In this document: positions 4,152-52,810 of the stretch, one piece after another
Layout: each line of letters opens with the position of its first letter
How positions within the stretch are numbered: position 1 is the stretch's first letter
Source: Patescibacteria group bacterium
GTDB lineage: Bacteria > Patescibacteriota > Patescibacteriia > UBA10025 > JAHIVO01
Direction of reading: 5' to 3'
Assembly: GCA_041650915.1 (NCBI GenBank)
Contig: JBAZKE010000003.1
Coordinates: 85,226-149,225, forward strand
Length of the DNA stretch: 64,000 bases
Notes under the pieces: model-generated
Database searches by the model: none
The model's input: only the letters and a program-made list of their open reading frames with translations
Told to the model about the DNA's origin: nothing
Made by a program: the position numbers and the translations under genes

Positions 4152-6146
4152 ATGCAACCCGTCGTCTTCACCGAGAGCAGCATCCGGTTCCGCCAGTATG
4201 TCGTACTGGGGATTTTTTTATTTCTCATCGTGCTCTCGTCCTTCTTCTCCGGAGAGTGGAATCGCTGGCTTCACGGCATCTTCATGGTCGTCAGCTTTCC
4301 GCTCGCCTTCTTTACCATGATGCTGCTGCGGGGAGAGCCCGATCGCAGGACGGCTGTTTCCGCTTGGAGGTCTCCTTTTTTTTATTTTTTCCTGTTCATG
4401 GCCATCGTCGCGGCCACTTCAGTTGTGTCCGTGCAGCTCTACGAGAGCATGCATCAGGCTACGCTGCTGCTGTGTTACGGTATTTTTTTCTGGGTTGCGG
4501 CGACGGTCCTTGGCAAACCGCTGTTCCTCAAGCTCACCTCAATCGTCATTTACTGTACGGGCATCATCGCAGCAATCGTCAGCTTGGTGCTGCTCATTAT
4601 CGATCCGGCACTGAGGGCGGGAGGCCTCCTCTACAATGCGAATGCGCTCGGCAGCTACCTGCTCTTCAGCCTGCTGCTTGGGATCGTTCTTGCGCTTTCA
4701 GCTGAGAAAAGGCGGAACAGGGCGCTGTTTTGGTTCGGCACGCTCGTATTACTCGGCAGCTTTTTACTGACGTTTTCTTTTACAGCCTGGGTGAGCATCG
4801 CCGTTCCGCTGGGCATTCTGGCATGGTTACAGCGAAAAAAAATTTTTACAAAAAAAGGGCTGCTCTTTTTCCTCATTGCTTTTACGGCACTCTTTACCGT
4901 TGCGGTCGGCGTACGGTACTTGAGATCAGGGAATTTTTTACACGCGCTCAAGATACATACGACAATCCCGGCCGAAGGCATTGCCGAGAGTTTTAACCAG
5001 CGCTTGAAGTTCATATCTTCGGCCGCTGAGATTTTTTATGACCACCCACTCACCGGCAGCGGGCTCGCTACGTACCAGGATGTGTATCCGCGGTACGCGG
5101 CGTCAGTTCTCGAGCAGCCGCGGTACGCGCACAACTACTACATCCAGCTCGCTGCCGAGGTCGGGTTTTTTGGGGTGCTCGCGTTTGTTGCGCTCATTAG
5201 TACGCTCCTGATCCGGTGCCGTGCGGCTGTCCGGCGCCTCGCCGGCGATTCCGCACGCTATCCCTACGCGCTCGGATTATCACTGGGGGTGCTCGCCTCG
5301 GCAATTCACGCCCTATTCGATTTTGGATGGCATTTTCCCGGCGTATTCGTACTTTTCTGGATTGCGGGCGGCATTGTGATTGCGCAGGGGGGGCAGGCCG
5401 ACGAGGGCAGGGCGCGGCATCCAGGCTCGAATCGTACTGCGGTCATTCTCTGCGTTTCCGTCGGCCTACTGCTCATGGCGCGGGGCATTACGTTAATTGC
5501 ATCAGAAGCATACTATGACAAAGCTGAGCGGCAGCGGTCGCTGGGGGGCATCAGTTATCCGCTCGAGCTGTATGCGCGCGCAGTGGCGTTTGATCCTTCG
5601 CCGACAAAGATGAAACGCCAAGCCGGCCTGCTGTATGAACAGGCAAACACGATTCCAGATTACAATCCCGGGAGTTTCTACGAGGCCGAGCGGGTGACGT
5701 TAGACGCGATGCAGTGGAGTGAGATTGATTGCTTCGGGTATAATCTTCTCGGCAGGATTTATTTTATACTCGAGGACTATGGAAGCGCTGAACGCGCTTA
5801 TCAGAAAGCGATCGAAATAAACCCGGTTTTCGAACCTGATTTTTACTATGATCTGGCCGCTCTCTACGGCAAGCAAGAAGATTATGTGGGCGCCGTAGCT
5901 ACTATTGAGAGCATACTCTCGCGGTACGGCGAAACGGTGAAGACGGCTAATCCAAAGCTGAAAACCGAGCTGTCTTTTCTCAATCTGCTCCTTGGGCAAT
6001 CCTACCGGGAACTCGGGGAGTACGACTCAGCAGAGCGTGCATTACAGCGGGCGCTCGAAATCGATTCCGCGTTTGAATTGGCAGCGCTGGAGCTCGCTGG
6101 CGTCCGGCAGGACCGGGCACGTCTAAACGGCGCCACTGATGAGTAG
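4152..6146 (+). CDS. Wzy_C / O-antigen-ligase-like polytopic membrane protein with a C-terminal TPR domain; candidate pilin O-oligosaccharyltransferase (TfpO/PglL-like)
   Basis: About 12 transmembrane helices. The Wzy_C signature RYAHNYYIQLAAEVGFFGVL is present. The C-terminal ~230 aa carry TPR-like repeats (AYQKAIEINP.., ALQRALEID). Location between two pilin genes. Confidence 0.65.
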   Translation: MQPVVFTESSIRFRQYVVLGIFLFLIVLSSFFSGEWNRWLHGIFMVVSFPLAFFTMMLLRGEPDRRTAVSAWRSPFFYFFLFMAIVAATSVVSVQLYESMHQATLLLCYGIFFWVAATVLGKPLFLKLTSIVIYCTGIIAAIVSLVLLIIDPALRAGGLLYNANALGSYLLFSLLLGIVLALSAEKRRNRALFWFGTLVLLGSFLLTFSFTAWVSIAVPLGILAWLQRKKIFTKKGLLFFLIAFTALFTVAVGVRYLRSGNFLHALKIHTTIPAEGIAESFNQRLKFISSAAEIFYDHPLTGSGLATYQDVYPRYAASVLEQPRYAHNYYIQLAAEVGFFGVLAFVALISTLLIRCRAAVRRLAGDSARYPYALGLSLGVLASAIHALFDFGWHFPGVFVLFWIAGGIVIAQGGQADEGRARHPGSNRTAVILCVSVGLLLMARGITLIASEAYYDKAERQRSLGGISYPLELYARAVAFDPSPTKMKRQAGLLYEQANTIPDYNPGSFYEAERVTLDAMQWSEIDCFGYNLLGRIYFILEDYGSAERAYQKAIEINPVFEPDFYYDLAALYGKQEDYVGAVATIESILSRYGETVKTANPKLKTELSFLNLLLGQSYRELGEYDSAERALQRALEIDSAFELAALELAGVRQDRARLNGATDE

Positions 6147-15868: not shown

Positions 15869-16300
15869 ATGGCAAAGGATAAGAGCAAGGAAACGATAAA
15901 AGATTTGAACGGTAAGTTTAATTCAAAGATTCTGCTTGTCGAGGACGACAAGATGCTCGCTGACATGTATATCACGAAGTTTACGAAAGAAGGACTCAAG
16001 GTGATGCGCGCGGAAGATGGCGCACAGGGCCTCGCGATGGCCAAGAAAGAAAAGCCTGATCTCGTGTTGCTCGATATCATCATGCCGAAACTGGACGGTT
16101 TTGCGGTGCTTAAAGAGCTGAAGCAGGATCCGAATACCCAGAATACCCACGTGCTGCTGCTCACCAACCTCGGCCAGTCGGAAGACGTCGAGAAGGGCAA
16201 AGAACTTGGCGCTGATGACTACTTTATCAAGGCAAACCACACGCCGGCGGAAATCGTTGAGAAGGTGCGGTACATGCTCACTAAAAAAATGCAGGAATAA
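15869..16300 (+). CDS. Single-domain response regulator receiver, paralog of 603-995
   Basis: 143-aa receiver domain, ~55 % identical by eye to the pilB-adjacent regulator (ILLVEDD..LLDIIMPK..LLLTNLGQ..YFIKA). Confidence 0.75.
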   Translation: MAKDKSKETIKDLNGKFNSKILLVEDDKMLADMYITKFTKEGLKVMRAEDGAQGLAMAKKEKPDLVLLDIIMPKLDGFAVLKELKQDPNTQNTHVLLLTNLGQSEDVEKGKELGADDYFIKANHTPAEIVEKVRYMLTKKMQE

Positions 16301-16303
16301 ATT

Positions 16304-16906
16304 ATGAAGATGAAAGCAGACCCGCGGAAAGAACGCACGGTTGTTTTACTGAAGCCAGACGCAATCAAGCGCGGCCTGGCAGGAGAGATACTCACTCGCT
16401 TTGAAAAAGCGGGCTTTAAGATCGCTGCCCTCAAGATGGTTCACGTCAATGCCGACCTTGTCGCCAAGCACTACCCCGATAACAGGGAGTACCTTGCGCT
16501 CGTCGGCGGAAAGACGCTCAAGACGTACGAGGAGTACGGCATGGATCCCGGTGAGGAGCTCGGAACGAAGGACGCATACGAAATCGGAAAGATGGTGCGC
16601 ACGTGGAACATGGAATTTTTAAGCTCGGGGCCCGTCATCGCAATCCTGCTCCAGGGCATCCACGCGGTCGATGCCGTCCGCATGATGGTAGGCAATACGC
16701 TTCCCCGGTTTGCCCAGCCTGGCACGATCCGCGGTGATTACTCGCTCGATTCACCTATCCTCGCGAATATGCAGAAGCGGACGGTCAAGAACATGATTCA
16801 CGCATCGGGTACGGTTGAGGAGGCACAGTTCGAGGCTGAACTCTGGTTTCGCAAGAATGAGATTCATGAGTACAAGCGGGCTGACGAAGAGATTATGTTT
16901 GAATAG
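16304..16906 (+). CDS. ndk: Nucleoside diphosphate kinase with a ~50-aa internal insertion
   Basis: NDK motifs VVLLKPDA, the NMIHASG active-site His and RGD. 200 aa against the usual ~140. Confidence 0.8.
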   Translation: MKMKADPRKERTVVLLKPDAIKRGLAGEILTRFEKAGFKIAALKMVHVNADLVAKHYPDNREYLALVGGKTLKTYEEYGMDPGEELGTKDAYEIGKMVRTWNMEFLSSGPVIAILLQGIHAVDAVRMMVGNTLPRFAQPGTIRGDYSLDSPILANMQKRTVKNMIHASGTVEEAQFEAELWFRKNEIHEYKRADEEIMFE

Positions 16907-16909
16907 GGC

Positions 16910-16937
16910 TTGACGCCGTTGCCGGTTTTAGTATACT
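16910..16937 (+). promoter_or_regulatory. Sigma70-like promoter (TTGACG, 16 nt, TATACT) for the small-ORF cluster
   Basis: Hexamers read directly from the sequence. Confidence 0.4.
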
Positions 16938-16947
16938 TGTATACATT

Positions 16948-17064
16948 ATGGAAGCTGTAAATTGCCTGAAAGCGCATCTGGGCAGTAAAACATACACCGT
17001 AATCGGTGCCTTCTTTGTGATTAGCATTATCGTTATTATTAGCGGCTTACTGGTTAGCTTGTAG
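16948..17064 (+). CDS. Small hydrophobic peptide (38 aa, MEAVNCLKAHLGSKTYTVIGAFFVISIIVIISGLLVSL)
   Basis: Read by hand; below the 60-aa cutoff of the ORF track. It has an upstream promoter and a downstream hairpin plus T-run. Confidence 0.3.
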   Translation: MEAVNCLKAHLGSKTYTVIGAFFVISIIVIISGLLVSL

Positions 17065-17261
17065 TTCAACTCTCAGGAAGAAGTACAGACTAGCCGGTAA
17101 GCGGCTCGTTTTTTTAATATGAGGCACAACCAGAGGTTTTTCTTTATGAGCCCCTTTTTCATTAAGGATCGCCTTGTCCAGACGTGAAGTCGAAGATTCG
17201 ATGTTTCTTGAAAAATACAAAAAGTGCAACAGAAATAAAAACAGCAGATTGGAGGTTATGT

Positions 17262-17480
17262 ATGCTCGGAATGGGTTTGGATAACTGCGGTTCGTTTGCA
17301 CCGCTGCCGGTTGAAGAACGCATTGTTGCCGATTCTCCTGCTCAGCTCAAGCAGACACTCGTTGGGCGGAATGAATTTCATGAAGCCAGCTTGCGCGTTT
17401 CCCCTGAGACACTCCTCAGGTTAATCGAGCTCTTGCCGGCTGATGGTCCCGTAGACGTATGTTTGATTACGAGGCGTTAA
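17262..17480 (+). CDS. Small hypothetical protein (72 aa)
   Basis: An RBS GGAGG lies 7 nt before the ATG. The leader sequence is shared with the next small gene. Confidence 0.4.
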   Translation: MLGMGLDNCGSFAPLPVEERIVADSPAQLKQTLVGRNEFHEASLRVSPETLLRLIELLPADGPVDVCLITRR

Positions 17481-17813
17481 CCGTGCCAGGCATCTCCGTA
17501 CCCATCATGGCAAAGTCCCAGCGGCGCCGTCCTGCTGCTGGGGCTTTTCTTTTTCTCCCGGTATGCTATACTCATTGCCAGTATGCAACCGCACAGTGAT
17601 GCACAGCCAATCCAGAAAAAGAACCTGAAAGCACAGGCTGCATTTATCGTTGCCCGGAAGGATGGCAAGAAGCGAACGGCGAGCCCGCTGGTGGTTGGTT
17701 TGTAGATAGTACAGTCGAGAGCATTTACAGACGAGCCATCAGTAGGCTCGTTTTTTTGCATTGAAAAACATACTGAAAATAAAAACAGAATCAACTTTTT
17801 GGAGGATTCAAAC

Positions 17814-18077
17814 ATGGCACGTTTTATCATCGATTCGATCGGCTTTGAAGGTGAGGGCTTCGGCAGCGAGTGCGTGATAGCGTTCGGCAGCGGTTCAGGT
17901 TCGTTCCGATTCGGCGGCGGACGGGTTATTTCGCAGATCGTCCAACTGGTCGTCGGCACGGAGGGCGGTTCAATCGAGCTCGAGGGTGAGTACGGCGCGG
18001 TCATATGCGTCAGTGAAGCCCAAAAAGCTGAGATCGAGCGCTGGGCGAACCGGTACGGCACCTGCTGCGGTTACTGA
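17814..18077 (+). CDS. Gly-rich small protein (87 aa, ends ...GTCCGY)
   Basis: An RBS GGAGG precedes the ATG. A strong intrinsic terminator follows. Confidence 0.45.
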   Translation: MARFIIDSIGFEGEGFGSECVIAFGSGSGSFRFGGGRVISQIVQLVVGTEGGSIELEGEYGAVICVSEAQKAEIERWANRYGTCCGY

Positions 18078-18098
18078 TATTTTCACTTCAAAGCTCTG

Positions 18099-18127
18099 AG
18101 GCTCCCTTTCGGGGGAGCCTTTTTTAT
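18099..18127 (+). terminator. Rho-independent terminator
   Basis: AGGCTCCC-TTTC-GGGAGCCT followed by TTTTT. Confidence 0.65.
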
Positions 18128-18254
18128 TGCAAATGGCGCCATAAAAGCTATAATGAGTGTAAGTAATAACACAACGGGGTGTGGCCCCGCATCATTCACT
18201 CTGTTCAGATGCGGGGTAAAGGTGCTTTATCTGTTACGTTATTATGAGCTTAAT

Positions 18255-18328
18255 CGGGGATTAGCGCAGTTGGCTAGCGCGCATGCATGGGGTGCATGAG
18301 GTCACCGGTTCAAGTCCGGTATCCCCGA
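18255..18328 (+). tRNA. tRNA-Pro (anticodon GGG)
   Basis: A cloverleaf was folded by hand: acceptor CGGGGAT/ATCCCCG, anticodon stem CATGC/GCATG, loop ATGGGGT, T-loop TTCAAGT. No encoded CCA. Confidence 0.8.
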
Positions 18329-18666
18329 TTAAGCTCATAATGGAGTGCGTGCCTGTCCCGTACCCGGACGAAGTGGGCGGTGTAGGGAGGTTGTAGGTTT
18401 CCCGCTGCTTGGATCGCGTCGAGACTTGAAGGTCGAGCGGTGCGGAAACCGCCGCGAGACTAGGGCCGCAGGGAAGCACATAGCCTGGGCCAAGCCGCAG
18501 GGTGACGCCACTCCCGTATCCCTACCGTACGGAGGTTGTTTTTGTAGTGGGATTGCATCAGATGCAGGAATATGCTATAGTAATCAATTCCTTGTGTATC
18601 CTGTTGTTCTTTGACAGGGAAATCGGCTAACACATGAGGAGAGGGCTCTTTTTTTAAGGAGGCACT

Positions 18667-19092
18667 ATGCCAATGTCAGGTCGTTTCAAGACCCGCCAGG
18701 AAGAACTGGATTATCTGCAGCACCTGAGTGATATTGGTTTTTATCGCGAAGAAGGCCGCAACGGCGAGATTATTTATTGGTTGCGTTTTTATTTGGAGCC
18801 GCCTGAAAACAAGCCTGTCTGCGAAGTGCGAATAGCAATGGAATGGAGGTTCATTAGCCGTGACGATTGTCCGGAAAAGGAAGGCTTTTTTGGGGTGAAG
18901 CTCGCGGTTGGAGACGCCGAACACGACTGCCAGTATGTGGCGCGTTACGATACGCTGTATGAGTATTCGCCGCCATCCCCGTACCACCAGTTAGTGCTCG
19001 GCCAGAGGGTGTATGCCTTGTTCATGAGATGGGTCCGCGGCGAGATCGTTGAGTTCGTCTGGCGGCGAGGCGATGAACTGCCGGAGCGGTAG
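18667..19092 (+). CDS. Hypothetical protein (141 aa)
   Basis: An RBS AAGGAGG precedes the start. A terminator-like hairpin GCCCCCG...CGGGGGC with TTTTTT lies downstream. Confidence 0.5.
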   Translation: MPMSGRFKTRQEELDYLQHLSDIGFYREEGRNGEIIYWLRFYLEPPENKPVCEVRIAMEWRFISRDDCPEKEGFFGVKLAVGDAEHDCQYVARYDTLYEYSPPSPYHQLVLGQRVYALFMRWVRGEIVEFVWRRGDELPER

Positions 19093-52444: not shown

Positions 52445-52810
52445 ATGAGAAAAAATAATCAAAAAATTAAACTGCGGAAGCGCACCGGAAGGGCGCGCCG
52501 GACGCGTGCAAAAATATACGGTACCGCAGAGCGCCCGCGCGCTTCAGTATTCAGGAGCTTGCAGAATATCTATGTGCAGGTCATCAATGATGAGAAGAGC
52601 GGGACAATTGTATCTGCCTCGAGCGCGGAAATTAAAAACAGAGCCAAGATGAATAAAACCGATGAAGCGCGGGAAGTCGGCAAGCTCATCGCGGAGCGCG
52701 CACTGAAGGCAAGCGTCAGGCAAGTGGTATTCGATCGTCGCGGGTACCAGTACCACGGGCGGGTGCGGGCGCTCGCCGAGAGCATGCGCGAGCACGGTCT
52801 CAGCTTTTAA
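52445..52810 (+). CDS. rplR: 50S ribosomal protein L18
   Basis: uL18 translation. Confidence 0.9.

Follow-up and report, generated by a model that had tools for sequence, protein, structure and literature searches.

What do the short open reading frames (ORFs) between ndk and a tRNA-Pro gene of a Patescibacteria genome encode, and how does transcription reach each of them? The locus lies in a window of 64,000 nucleotides (nt), the whole stretch of DNA that was analysed (positions 85,226 to 149,225 of contig JBAZKE010000003.1, assembly GCA_041650915.1), which is part of a 273-kb contig of a metagenome-assembled genome of the Patescibacteria (candidate phyla radiation, CPR) whose encoded proteins are tagged WC505_048xx at NCBI. 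All features are given in window coordinates and on the + strand, unless stated otherwise. Four ORFs are concerned: A (16948-17064), of 38 amino acids (aa), with a polar N-terminus and a hydrophobic C-terminal segment ..YTVIGAFFVISIIVIISGLLVSL; B (17262-17480), a 72-aa orphan soluble protein with the N-terminus LGLDNCGSFAPLP; C (17583-17705), a basic protein of 40 aa and a paralogue of A; and D (17814-18077), a Gly-rich orphan of 87 aa with a Cys-rich tail ending in GTCCGY. A preliminary description of the sequence had taken them for a cluster of independently transcribed small genes with a repeated leader, possibly encoding secreted or membrane effectors, bacteriocin-like peptides or a toxin/immunity set. 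The reading that we tentatively prefer, and to which we give somewhat less than even weight, is that the locus consists of two tandem paralogous leader-ORF transcription attenuators gating B and D.

Competing hairpins behind ORFs A and C

Hairpin T_A (17041-17106; -34.8 kcal/mol, z = -5.95) has a long fold of 21 base pairs (bp), whose 5' arm consists of the last 8 codons and the stop codon of A, and a short fold at 17092-17106; the T7 run that follows (17109-17115) completes an intrinsic terminator. Its counterpart T_C (17678-17757; -44.1 kcal/mol, z = -6.87) has its long fold at 17678-17752, its short fold at 17729-17753 and its U-run at 17751-17757. The two terminators form a 32-nt direct repeat with 78% identity, in a region holding 15 terminator-like sites, against 5.0 +/- 2.6 in shuffled sequences. 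In the long hairpin, the 3'-terminal ~25 nt of the short ORF, together with its stop codon, are joined to sequence further downstream over 21-25 bp, and the base of the stem abuts the U-run. The 3' arm alone (ACUAGCC-loop-GGCUAG) can instead fold into a short hairpin of 7 bp. In the mechanism proposed below, four segments would take part: segment 1, about 8 codons before the stop; segment 2, the last 4 codons and the stop; segment 3, ACUAGCC; and segment 4, GGCUAG, with U6-8 directly after it. In the A unit, 17055-17061 is assigned to segment 2 and 17090-17096 to segment 3.

Relatives for comparison came from a search with the ndk protein, combined with contig look-ups. The search returned many relatives of 75-90% identity, labelled Patescibacteria, Candidatus Kerfeldbacteria or Candidatus Komeilibacteria, and twelve further syntenic loci (designated by L numbers) were read. 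Scans anchored on ndk yielded one locus only in GTDB genomes and 80 loci in metagenome contigs, among which the module of short ORF and hairpin was present in L006/L007 only. Pairing of the ORF 3' end with the downstream sequence up to the U-run is present in 17 modules from 13 loci; fold z-scores for the six modules tested were -6.0, -6.9, -3.0, -5.6, -5.5 and -4.1. The short hairpins reach -8.6 to -15.2 kcal/mol in 16 of the 17 modules, each followed by U5-8, and -5.7 kcal/mol in L088, which has no cargo gene.

For the covariation analysis, 14 modules taken from 11 related genomes were aligned with MAFFT (a six-module version was also run). For the long fold, 88.7% of the alignment cells are paired, against 18-45% when the partners are slid, and 9 pairs (28 cells) have changed on both sides, values reached by none of 500 shuffles. 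The short fold, 3:4, is paired in 96.9% of the cells and has 3 pairs with compensatory changes (matched by 0-2 of 500 shuffles); slid-partner controls over both folds gave 10-50%. Several of the covarying long-fold pairs map to what would be the loop in the short fold, so that selection acts on the long fold itself, and an A-U to U-A swap in L087 is compatible with the short fold 3:4 only. Segments 1, 3 and 4 have changed jointly in the C module of the window and in L091. The comparative data thus describe two predicted folds that are mutually exclusive, share one strand beside the U-run and are both conserved. A covariance model of the long fold matched in the island only, with no second copy of the module in the 297 kb searched, and it also detected the C-type module of L090, which was outside its training set (E = 5e-4). 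Among the Rfam covariance models, only tRNAs reached the gathering score, with no leader or attenuator family, and at E values up to 5 the only additions were generic terminator-like matches at the D terminator, again with no leader family.

Promoters, leaders and transcription units

The promoter of A, P_A (16910-16937; TTGACG-16-TATACT), matches the consensus at 10 of 12 positions. Its -10 element ends 10 nt 5' of the start codon of A, and the A mRNA would therefore be almost leaderless; A has no Shine-Dalgarno sequence. P_C, read from the sequence as an extended -10 element (TGCTATACT, 17564-17572), stands 10 nt before the ATG of C, the same spacing as that between P_A and A, and C has no Shine-Dalgarno sequence either. 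Counterparts of P_A (TTGACA-16-TAnnnT, 10-27 nt 5' of A) were found in L004, L007, L085, L087, L090, L091, L092, L093 and L094, and counterparts of P_C in L003 (TTGACA-16/17-TACAAT) and L090 (TTGACA-16-TATCAT). Consensus promoters lie 10-27 nt 5' of the start codon in 10 of 15 short ORFs, and an eleventh hit, for the C ORF of L089, sits within the decayed A ORF, 70 nt upstream. The recognisable promoters of the clade are close to the consensus TTGACA-16/17-TAnnnT. A scan for sigma-70-type promoters found none between the A or C hairpin and B or D in the window, none in the 14 leaders between the U-run and the downstream protein gene in the relatives, and no promoter-like site on the minus strand between 16900 and 18200. 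Because promoters precede A and C only, two transcription units, A-B and C-D, are predicted in place of four independent genes, and, as the leaders contain no promoter, transcription of B and D needs read-through of the hairpins.

B, D and the Zn-ribbon genes that replace B in relatives have GGAGG as Shine-Dalgarno sequence, whereas the short ORFs have none and at most a leader of a few nt. The B leader (17208-17255) and the D leader (17761-17805) share TTGAAAAA (17208-17215 and 17761-17768), an exact 12-mer, AAATAAAAACAG (17233-17244 and 17777-17788), and TTGGAGG, with GGAGG at 17251-17255 and 17801-17805. With at most one mismatch, AAATAAAAACAG has 4 matches in the window, against 0.27 expected, and none of 100 shuffles reached 4; the other near-matches (2343-2354 on the minus strand and 52630-52641 inside an ORF) stand in contexts unrelated to the island leaders. 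The units end in conventional terminators, after B at 17512-17557 (hairpin site 17512-17547, a 15-bp stem with a T-rich tail) and after D at 18098-18131 (hairpin site 18098-18121).

Much of the preliminary description of the DNA is borne out by these results. The promoter right after ndk is there, the segment is more AT-rich than its surroundings (GC 0.44-0.50 across 16800-17800, 0.52-0.62 in the flanks), and each ORF is followed by a hairpin and T-run (17092-17106, 17512-17547, 17729-17753 and 18098-18121), those after A and C being in fact the 3' arms of longer hairpins that reach into the ORFs. The lengths given for A, B and D were correct, but the third ORF has 40 aa rather than 39. The shared leader elements do occur in both leaders, but TTGAAAAA is not conserved in relatives, and the leader follows directly on a terminator only for D, where it starts 3 nt after it; in the B leader, AAATAAAAACAG lies ~117 nt and TTGAAAAA ~92 nt past the U-run. 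Independent transcription of the four ORFs does not agree with the distribution of promoters.

Ribosome position as a possible switch

The effect of a translating ribosome was modelled by excluding from pairing the RNA up to 13 or 15 nt past the first base of the peptidyl (P) site, with the pairing probability (P) of the last six stem bases before the U-run as readout (unpaired, P < 0.35). In this in-silico model, the 3' strand of the terminator is unpaired for just 1-4 P-site codons in 15 of the 17 modules. In these modules the pairing probability is high both with the ribosome far upstream, where the long hairpin forms, and with the ribosome within ~8 codons of the stop, where the short hairpin forms. 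The interval of P-site codons that leaves the strand unpaired (the switch interval) coincides in the A type with an Ile run, which is I28-V29-I30 in the window and ATT ATT (ATT) in L004, L085, L087 and L090-L094; L093 and L094 were examined after the hypothesis had been formed. In the C type it coincides with Lys-Lys-Arg (K30-R31-T32 in the window). The hairpin of the 17-aa ORF of L090 differs in sequence and geometry, and the switch interval moves, yet lands on K-S-K-K. No switch interval was obtained for L088, in which no cargo gene stands behind A. The Ile run is encoded as ATT ATT ATT in 10 of 12 A ORFs; the share of ATT among Ile codons in the same loci is 30-69%, and the run is kept even where this share is 30-40%.

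These observations would fit a three-state device with the layout P_A-A-[hairpin/U-run]-B-terminator, followed by P_C-C-[hairpin/U-run]-D-terminator. In naked RNA, 1:4 and 2:3 would pair into one long hairpin at the U-run, leading to termination. A ribosome at the stop codon would cover segments 1 and 2, leaving the 7-bp hairpin 3:4 to form, again with termination. A ribosome stalled a few codons earlier, by contrast, would cover segment 1 and free segment 2, so that 2:3 could form; segment 4 would be left without a partner, and RNA polymerase would read through into B or D. The stall sites would be ATT ATT ATT, the Ile run, in A and Lys-Lys-Arg (AAG AAG CGA) in C, and slow decoding of Ile or of Lys/Arg would then induce the orphans B and D, or the Zn-ribbon proteins in relatives. 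From the model we infer that stalling would cause read-through and that the signal would be amino-acid or translation stress. A broader proposal, which we consider rather doubtful, is that the modules form an undescribed family of this clade, namely near-leaderless-ORF three-state switches with paralogues that read Ile (ATT) or Lys/Arg and induce orphan genes, A being at the same time a membrane protein.

On this broader proposal, the modules would be a ribosome-directed stress regulon, responding to slowed translation, in organisms generally credited with little regulatory RNA and no amino-acid biosynthesis. If the attenuator reading is right, reduced genomes would sense their translation status directly via ribosome position. 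We know of regulatory RNA and leader-peptide control in CPR bacteria only as an essentially uncharted field. The top matches listed in a literature search contained no link between Patescibacteria and leader peptides or attenuation. The element itself is ~80 nt long and comes with 17 sequenced variants and compensatory changes in two competing folds. The reading would also provide a physiological context for B, D and the Zn-ribbon family, i.e. induction when decoding of Ile or Lys/Arg slows.

Coding status and properties of the small proteins

Substitutions between the window and L003 (GCA_004196315.1) were counted by the Nei-Gojobori method as proportions of synonymous (pS) and non-synonymous (pN) differences. 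The result was pS 0.80 and pN 0.26 for A, about 1.0 and 0.33 for the N-terminal part of B, 0.64 and 0.47 for C, and 0.90 and 0.22 for D, for which the contrast is absent in the two shifted frames. In L003, all four ORFs follow ndk in the same order (A' 35 aa, B' 48 aa, C' 40 aa, D' 87 aa); D' is 63% identical to D, and the N-terminus of B' is conserved. Because of this shared order and of substitution patterns typical of purifying selection, A-D are judged to be real genes under such selection. Being misannotated or missed by gene callers, they should enter the annotation. The public gene calls place a 37-aa ORF on the minus strand (16864-16977, corresponding to L001 6561-6674) over the promoter and start of A and omit A, the conserved ORF; the public annotation at the start of A is probably wrong.

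The hydrophobic segment of A has a Kyte-Doolittle value of 2.97, and orthologues in 11 related loci give the consensus YTLIGAGLVIGIIII.SGLLVSL. C ends in the same S-P-L-V-V-G-L as A, with Lys-Lys-Arg in place of the Ile run, and its orthologues in L003, L085 and L089 are exactly 40 aa long. A is the only one with a membrane-type segment; no signal peptide, hydrophobic or membrane segment was found in B, C or D. A is probably a functional small membrane protein besides any sensory or leader role. Homologues of B are present in L003 (48 aa, 59% identity over 29 aa) and L093 (75 aa), and a word-indexed search of 5.8e9 proteins matched B to itself only. The same search gave one full-length homologue of D (63% identity), and an exhaustive hidden Markov model search of 1.8e9 representatives with the D alignment gave the same single homologue and no other real one; giant ankyrin, Big_6 and haemolysin-type repeat proteins that appeared as candidates were rejected as artefacts of repeat summation. 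D is predicted to be beta-rich with a C-terminal helix. An AlphaFold2 model from a two-sequence alignment had a predicted local distance difference test score (pLDDT) of 54 and is unreliable. A divergent family of D-like proteins, 16-23% identical to D, occurs in L085, L087, L089 and L090, and a profile search of the PDB with the D-like alignment returned no match. The N-termini of B and D are alike (M-x-R-[FL]-x-[IL]-[DN]); paralogy of the two was not adopted.

A candidate 22-aa ORF of uncertain status, MRHNQRFFFMSPFFIKDRLVQT (17119-17187), begins 3 nt past the U-run that follows the A hairpin and may be a third tiny ORF, situated in the leader that read-through would transcribe. At the same place, L093 (3819-3887) has an ORF of equal length; pS is 0.63 and pN 0.30 for the reading frame, as against about 0.35/0.37 for the other frames. 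ATGAGG right after the U-run is also seen in L085 and L091, where it opens ORFs of 8 aa.

Variation among related loci

The island, from ndk to the next tRNA or CNNM gene, varies in its content, with A and its hairpin as the nearly constant element. Both are present in L003, L004, L006/L007, L085, L087, L088, L090, L091, L092, L093 and L094, decayed in L089 and absent from L086 and L005, and in at least 12 genomes the module occupies a single, fixed syntenic position behind ndk. Behind A stands B in the window, L003 and L093, one or two small Zn-ribbon proteins in L004, L007, L085, L087, L090, L091, L092 and L094, and no gene in L088. The unit of C and a D-like gene is found in the window, L003, L085 and L089, and in shortened form, with the 17-aa ORF, in L090.

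The proteins that take the position of B belong to a Zn-ribbon family of 58-68 aa with the motif C-x2-C ... H-D-x3-G-N ... C ... N-P-C-G, for which Pfam gave no significant match. Their genes lie at 5933-6124 in L004, 3101-3460 in L007, 3863-4051 in L085, 3961-4161 in L087, 4214-4405 in L090, ~4097-4294 in L091, 4015-4221 in L092 and ~4173-4349 in L094; the one in L007 codes for a 119-aa protein with two Zn-ribbons. Two more distant loci, in which ndk is 64-65% identical, show another arrangement: in L010 (~2000-2230) and L012 (~620-830), a consensus promoter directly after ndk drives a conserved ORF-less stretch of ~200 nt (GAAGGTAGCTCTATTC...ACTTGCGGGAACCCACCTGAC...CAGGGGCAAATTTATAT) ending in a terminator, which looks like a candidate structured RNA.

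Comparison with known attenuators

Classical ribosome-dependent attenuators include E. coli trpL, ilvL/ivbL, leuL, thrL, hisL and pheL (in Rfam, e.g. RF01859). The island resembles them in having an upstream short ORF with a codon run, then an intrinsic terminator before the regulated genes, and mutually exclusive pairings such that only a ribosome stalled at the run would block the terminator; the Ile/Val-rich hydrophobic peptide recalls IlvL. The differences are several. The island matches no Rfam leader family by sequence or covariance model; its naked RNA would form 1:4 and 2:3 as one long hairpin instead of the classical 1:2 and 3:4; the stem includes segment 2 and the stop codon; the ORF is almost leaderless and has no Shine-Dalgarno sequence; the targets are orphan small proteins and not biosynthetic enzymes; the host belongs to a Patescibacteria lineage; and the leader peptide itself is conserved.

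In their 5' ends, the mycobacterial polycysteine leaderless short ORFs (Canestrari et al., 10.1101/834739) resemble the island: they likewise stand (near-)leaderless and first on the transcript, use a run of one codon type as sensor and respond independently, unit by unit, through ribosome pausing (a 'ribulon'). As described there, their targets are cysteine-metabolism genes and they act on access to the ribosome-binding site and not on termination, whereas the island has a hairpin and U-run, so that control would be by transcription termination. The Sinorhizobium trpL attenuator (PMC7298713, 10.1101/606483) yields a functional soluble leader peptide of 14 aa, peTrpL, and a small RNA, rnTrpL. 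It sets a precedent, since its leader peptide and its terminated short RNA each have a separate function, and a similar duality would reconcile a regulatory role with the protein-level conservation of A. A differs in being a membrane-type peptide of 35-41 aa, and nothing at the island points to a function in trans. Drug-dependent attenuators of the erm/cat type, such as the tylosin-induced yxjB of B. subtilis (PMC6851288), share stalling in a short hydrophobic leader ORF that switches the downstream RNA structure. Attenuators of this type regulate resistance genes and need an antibiotic in the ribosome tunnel, whereas no resistance gene lies downstream here.

Weighing the explanations

Several features by which attenuators are recognised are found at the locus. 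A short ORF stands upstream of the downstream gene, co-oriented with it and with no promoter between them; a G+C-rich hairpin and a U-run separate the two; the pairings are mutually exclusive, conserved and accompanied by compensatory changes; and, in the in-silico model, the codon run has a position at which stalling of the ribosome would favour the antiterminator. The following points weigh against attenuation. The targets match no family and have no role in the synthesis, transport or charging of the amino acid that would be sensed, and B, D and the Zn-ribbon genes show no link to Ile, Lys or amino-acid metabolism in general. The conservation of the A peptide (pS 0.80, pN 0.26) exceeds what a pure leader peptide needs; standing alone with its terminator in L088, A may simply be the gene of a small membrane protein, and Ile runs are normal in membrane segments. 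Because the modules are homologous, the match between switch interval and codon run counts as about three independent events rather than 17, one each for the A family, the C family and the C module of L090, and the switch interval of the A module of L003 is weak and not clear. The masking assumes that the leading edge of the ribosome lies 13-15 nt from the P-site. Finally, both folds end in a terminator, so that a non-regulatory reading explains much of the data. Such a reading, the main rival, would make the hairpins plain translation-proof terminators and A and C ordinary small-protein genes, with B and D reached by constitutive leaky read-through and nothing sensed. The hairpin 3:4 would terminate even with a ribosome at the end of the ORF, the long hairpin would reform after the ribosome has left and protect the 3' end of a stable short mRNA, and leakage would fix ratios of A>>B and C>>D. 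That both folds end at the U-run and are conserved speaks for it, as do the energies of the short hairpins, typical of intrinsic terminators in 16 of the 17 modules, the protein-level purifying selection on A together with its solitary occurrence in L088, and the promoterless leaders, which require some read-through under any model. It gives no reason, however, for the Lys/Arg run of C, the K-S-K-K of L090 and the Ile run of A to lie at the switch interval, and it leaves unexplained both the nucleotide-level invariance of ATT ATT ATT and the loss of the interval in L088, the very module that has no downstream gene; the 17-aa peptide of L090 is moreover unlikely as a stand-alone protein. We regard it as possible but on the unlikely side. 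Were it true, the locus would be a clear case of a terminator working despite its overlap with a translated ORF.

The remaining alternatives are less probable still. If each ORF were its own transcription unit, the A-rich leader motif (AAATAAAAACAG or nAAAAT) would be a non-canonical promoter for B and D, a role compatible with its exact repetition and enrichment in both leaders, with terminators directly preceding it and with the recurrence of an A-rich block containing AAAAT in the leaders of L003, L085, L087 and L089 (the block is also kept in L004). The motif was nevertheless rejected as a -10 element, having no -35 element at a consistent spacing and varying in its distance from the U-run (8 to ~117 nt) and from the Shine-Dalgarno sequence (6-23 nt); it is absent in L090, L091 and L094 although their downstream genes are intact, and the promoters of the clade match the consensus closely while none was found in any leader. 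All this makes separate promoters improbable. A toxin/antitoxin or bacteriocin/immunity set, with A as a type I membrane toxin or secreted peptide and the others as immunity proteins or partners, could draw on the 38-aa hydrophobic peptide with its highly structured 3' end and on the Cys-rich GTCCGY tail of D. A type I antisense RNA would call for a promoter on the minus strand, where the island has no promoter-like site, and in place of a patchy or multi-copy distribution a single copy of the locus is kept in strict synteny behind ndk in at least 12 related genomes, with no other copy detected by the covariance model in 297 kb. The neighbours (gatC, gatA, a receiver protein, ndk, tRNA-Pro, a 141-aa orphan and an AttH/lipocalin protein) do not resemble a cluster for bacteriocins or ribosomally synthesised and post-translationally modified peptides: modification enzymes, a peptidase-ABC exporter and an immunity-like membrane protein are all missing from the vicinity. 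Signal peptides and membrane segments are absent from B, C and D, and PADLOC and PHROGs gave no significant match, the sole one being a chance-level match of Cmr1 to C (E 0.04, 11 bits). We thus consider such a set very improbable. That the island is a spacer with chance ORFs could be argued from the missing family matches and the very few homologues of B and D, but order and frame of A-D are kept in L003, as is length for A, C and D, and synonymous exceeds non-synonymous change only in the annotated frames; the substitution pattern refutes this explanation, to which we assign practically no weight. The preliminary description therefore stands where it saw an island of small protein-coding genes, and the comparison with related genomes that it proposed shows presence/absence variation in the content of the island (the site itself being single-copy, syntenic and not patchy). 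Its suggestions of secreted or membrane effectors, bacteriocins or a toxin/immunity set find no support in the proteins or neighbours, the profile searches that it proposed gave no family identity for A-D (no significant match in Pfam, NCBIfam, PHROGs or PADLOC), and the unconserved spacer that it allowed for is at odds with the conservation of all four ORFs in L003 under purifying selection.

Neighbouring features

Upstream of the island lie a DNA ligase gene, gatC, gatA, a gene for a stand-alone receiver-domain protein (15869-16300) and a long-form ndk (16304-16906), and downstream of it tRNA-Pro(GGG) (18254-18329), the 141-aa orphan and the AttH/lipocalin-like gene. The ORF of the orphan (18667-19092) has a good Shine-Dalgarno sequence and no family match (DUF1408 remained below threshold), and no counterpart was present in any related locus searched. 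The GC-rich stretch 3' of the tRNA (18330-18548) has no unusual structure (fold z = -0.14).

The next promoter after the D terminator (18127-18154; TTGCAA-16-TATAAT) is predicted to drive tRNA-Pro and is conserved, with the extension GA.GTAAGT, in the window (18127-18230) and in L091 (~4500-4720). The interval from it to tRNA-Pro contains a hairpin, CGGGGTGTGGCCCCGCATC...GATGCGGGGTAAAGGTGC, similar to the 5'-end fragment of a tRNA; L091 contains several tandem copies, CGGGGTA.GGCCCCG...CGGGGTAAA, of this tRNA-5'-like hairpin. The tRNA gene is enclosed by a perfect inverted repeat of 21 nt (18241-18341), whereby leader and trailer lengthen the acceptor stem by ~14-16 bp (fold z = -6.5). L087 (~4786-4880) and L093 (~4322-4412) share this arrangement, their sequence being different but again complementary, which suggests a conserved structure for pre-tRNA processing.

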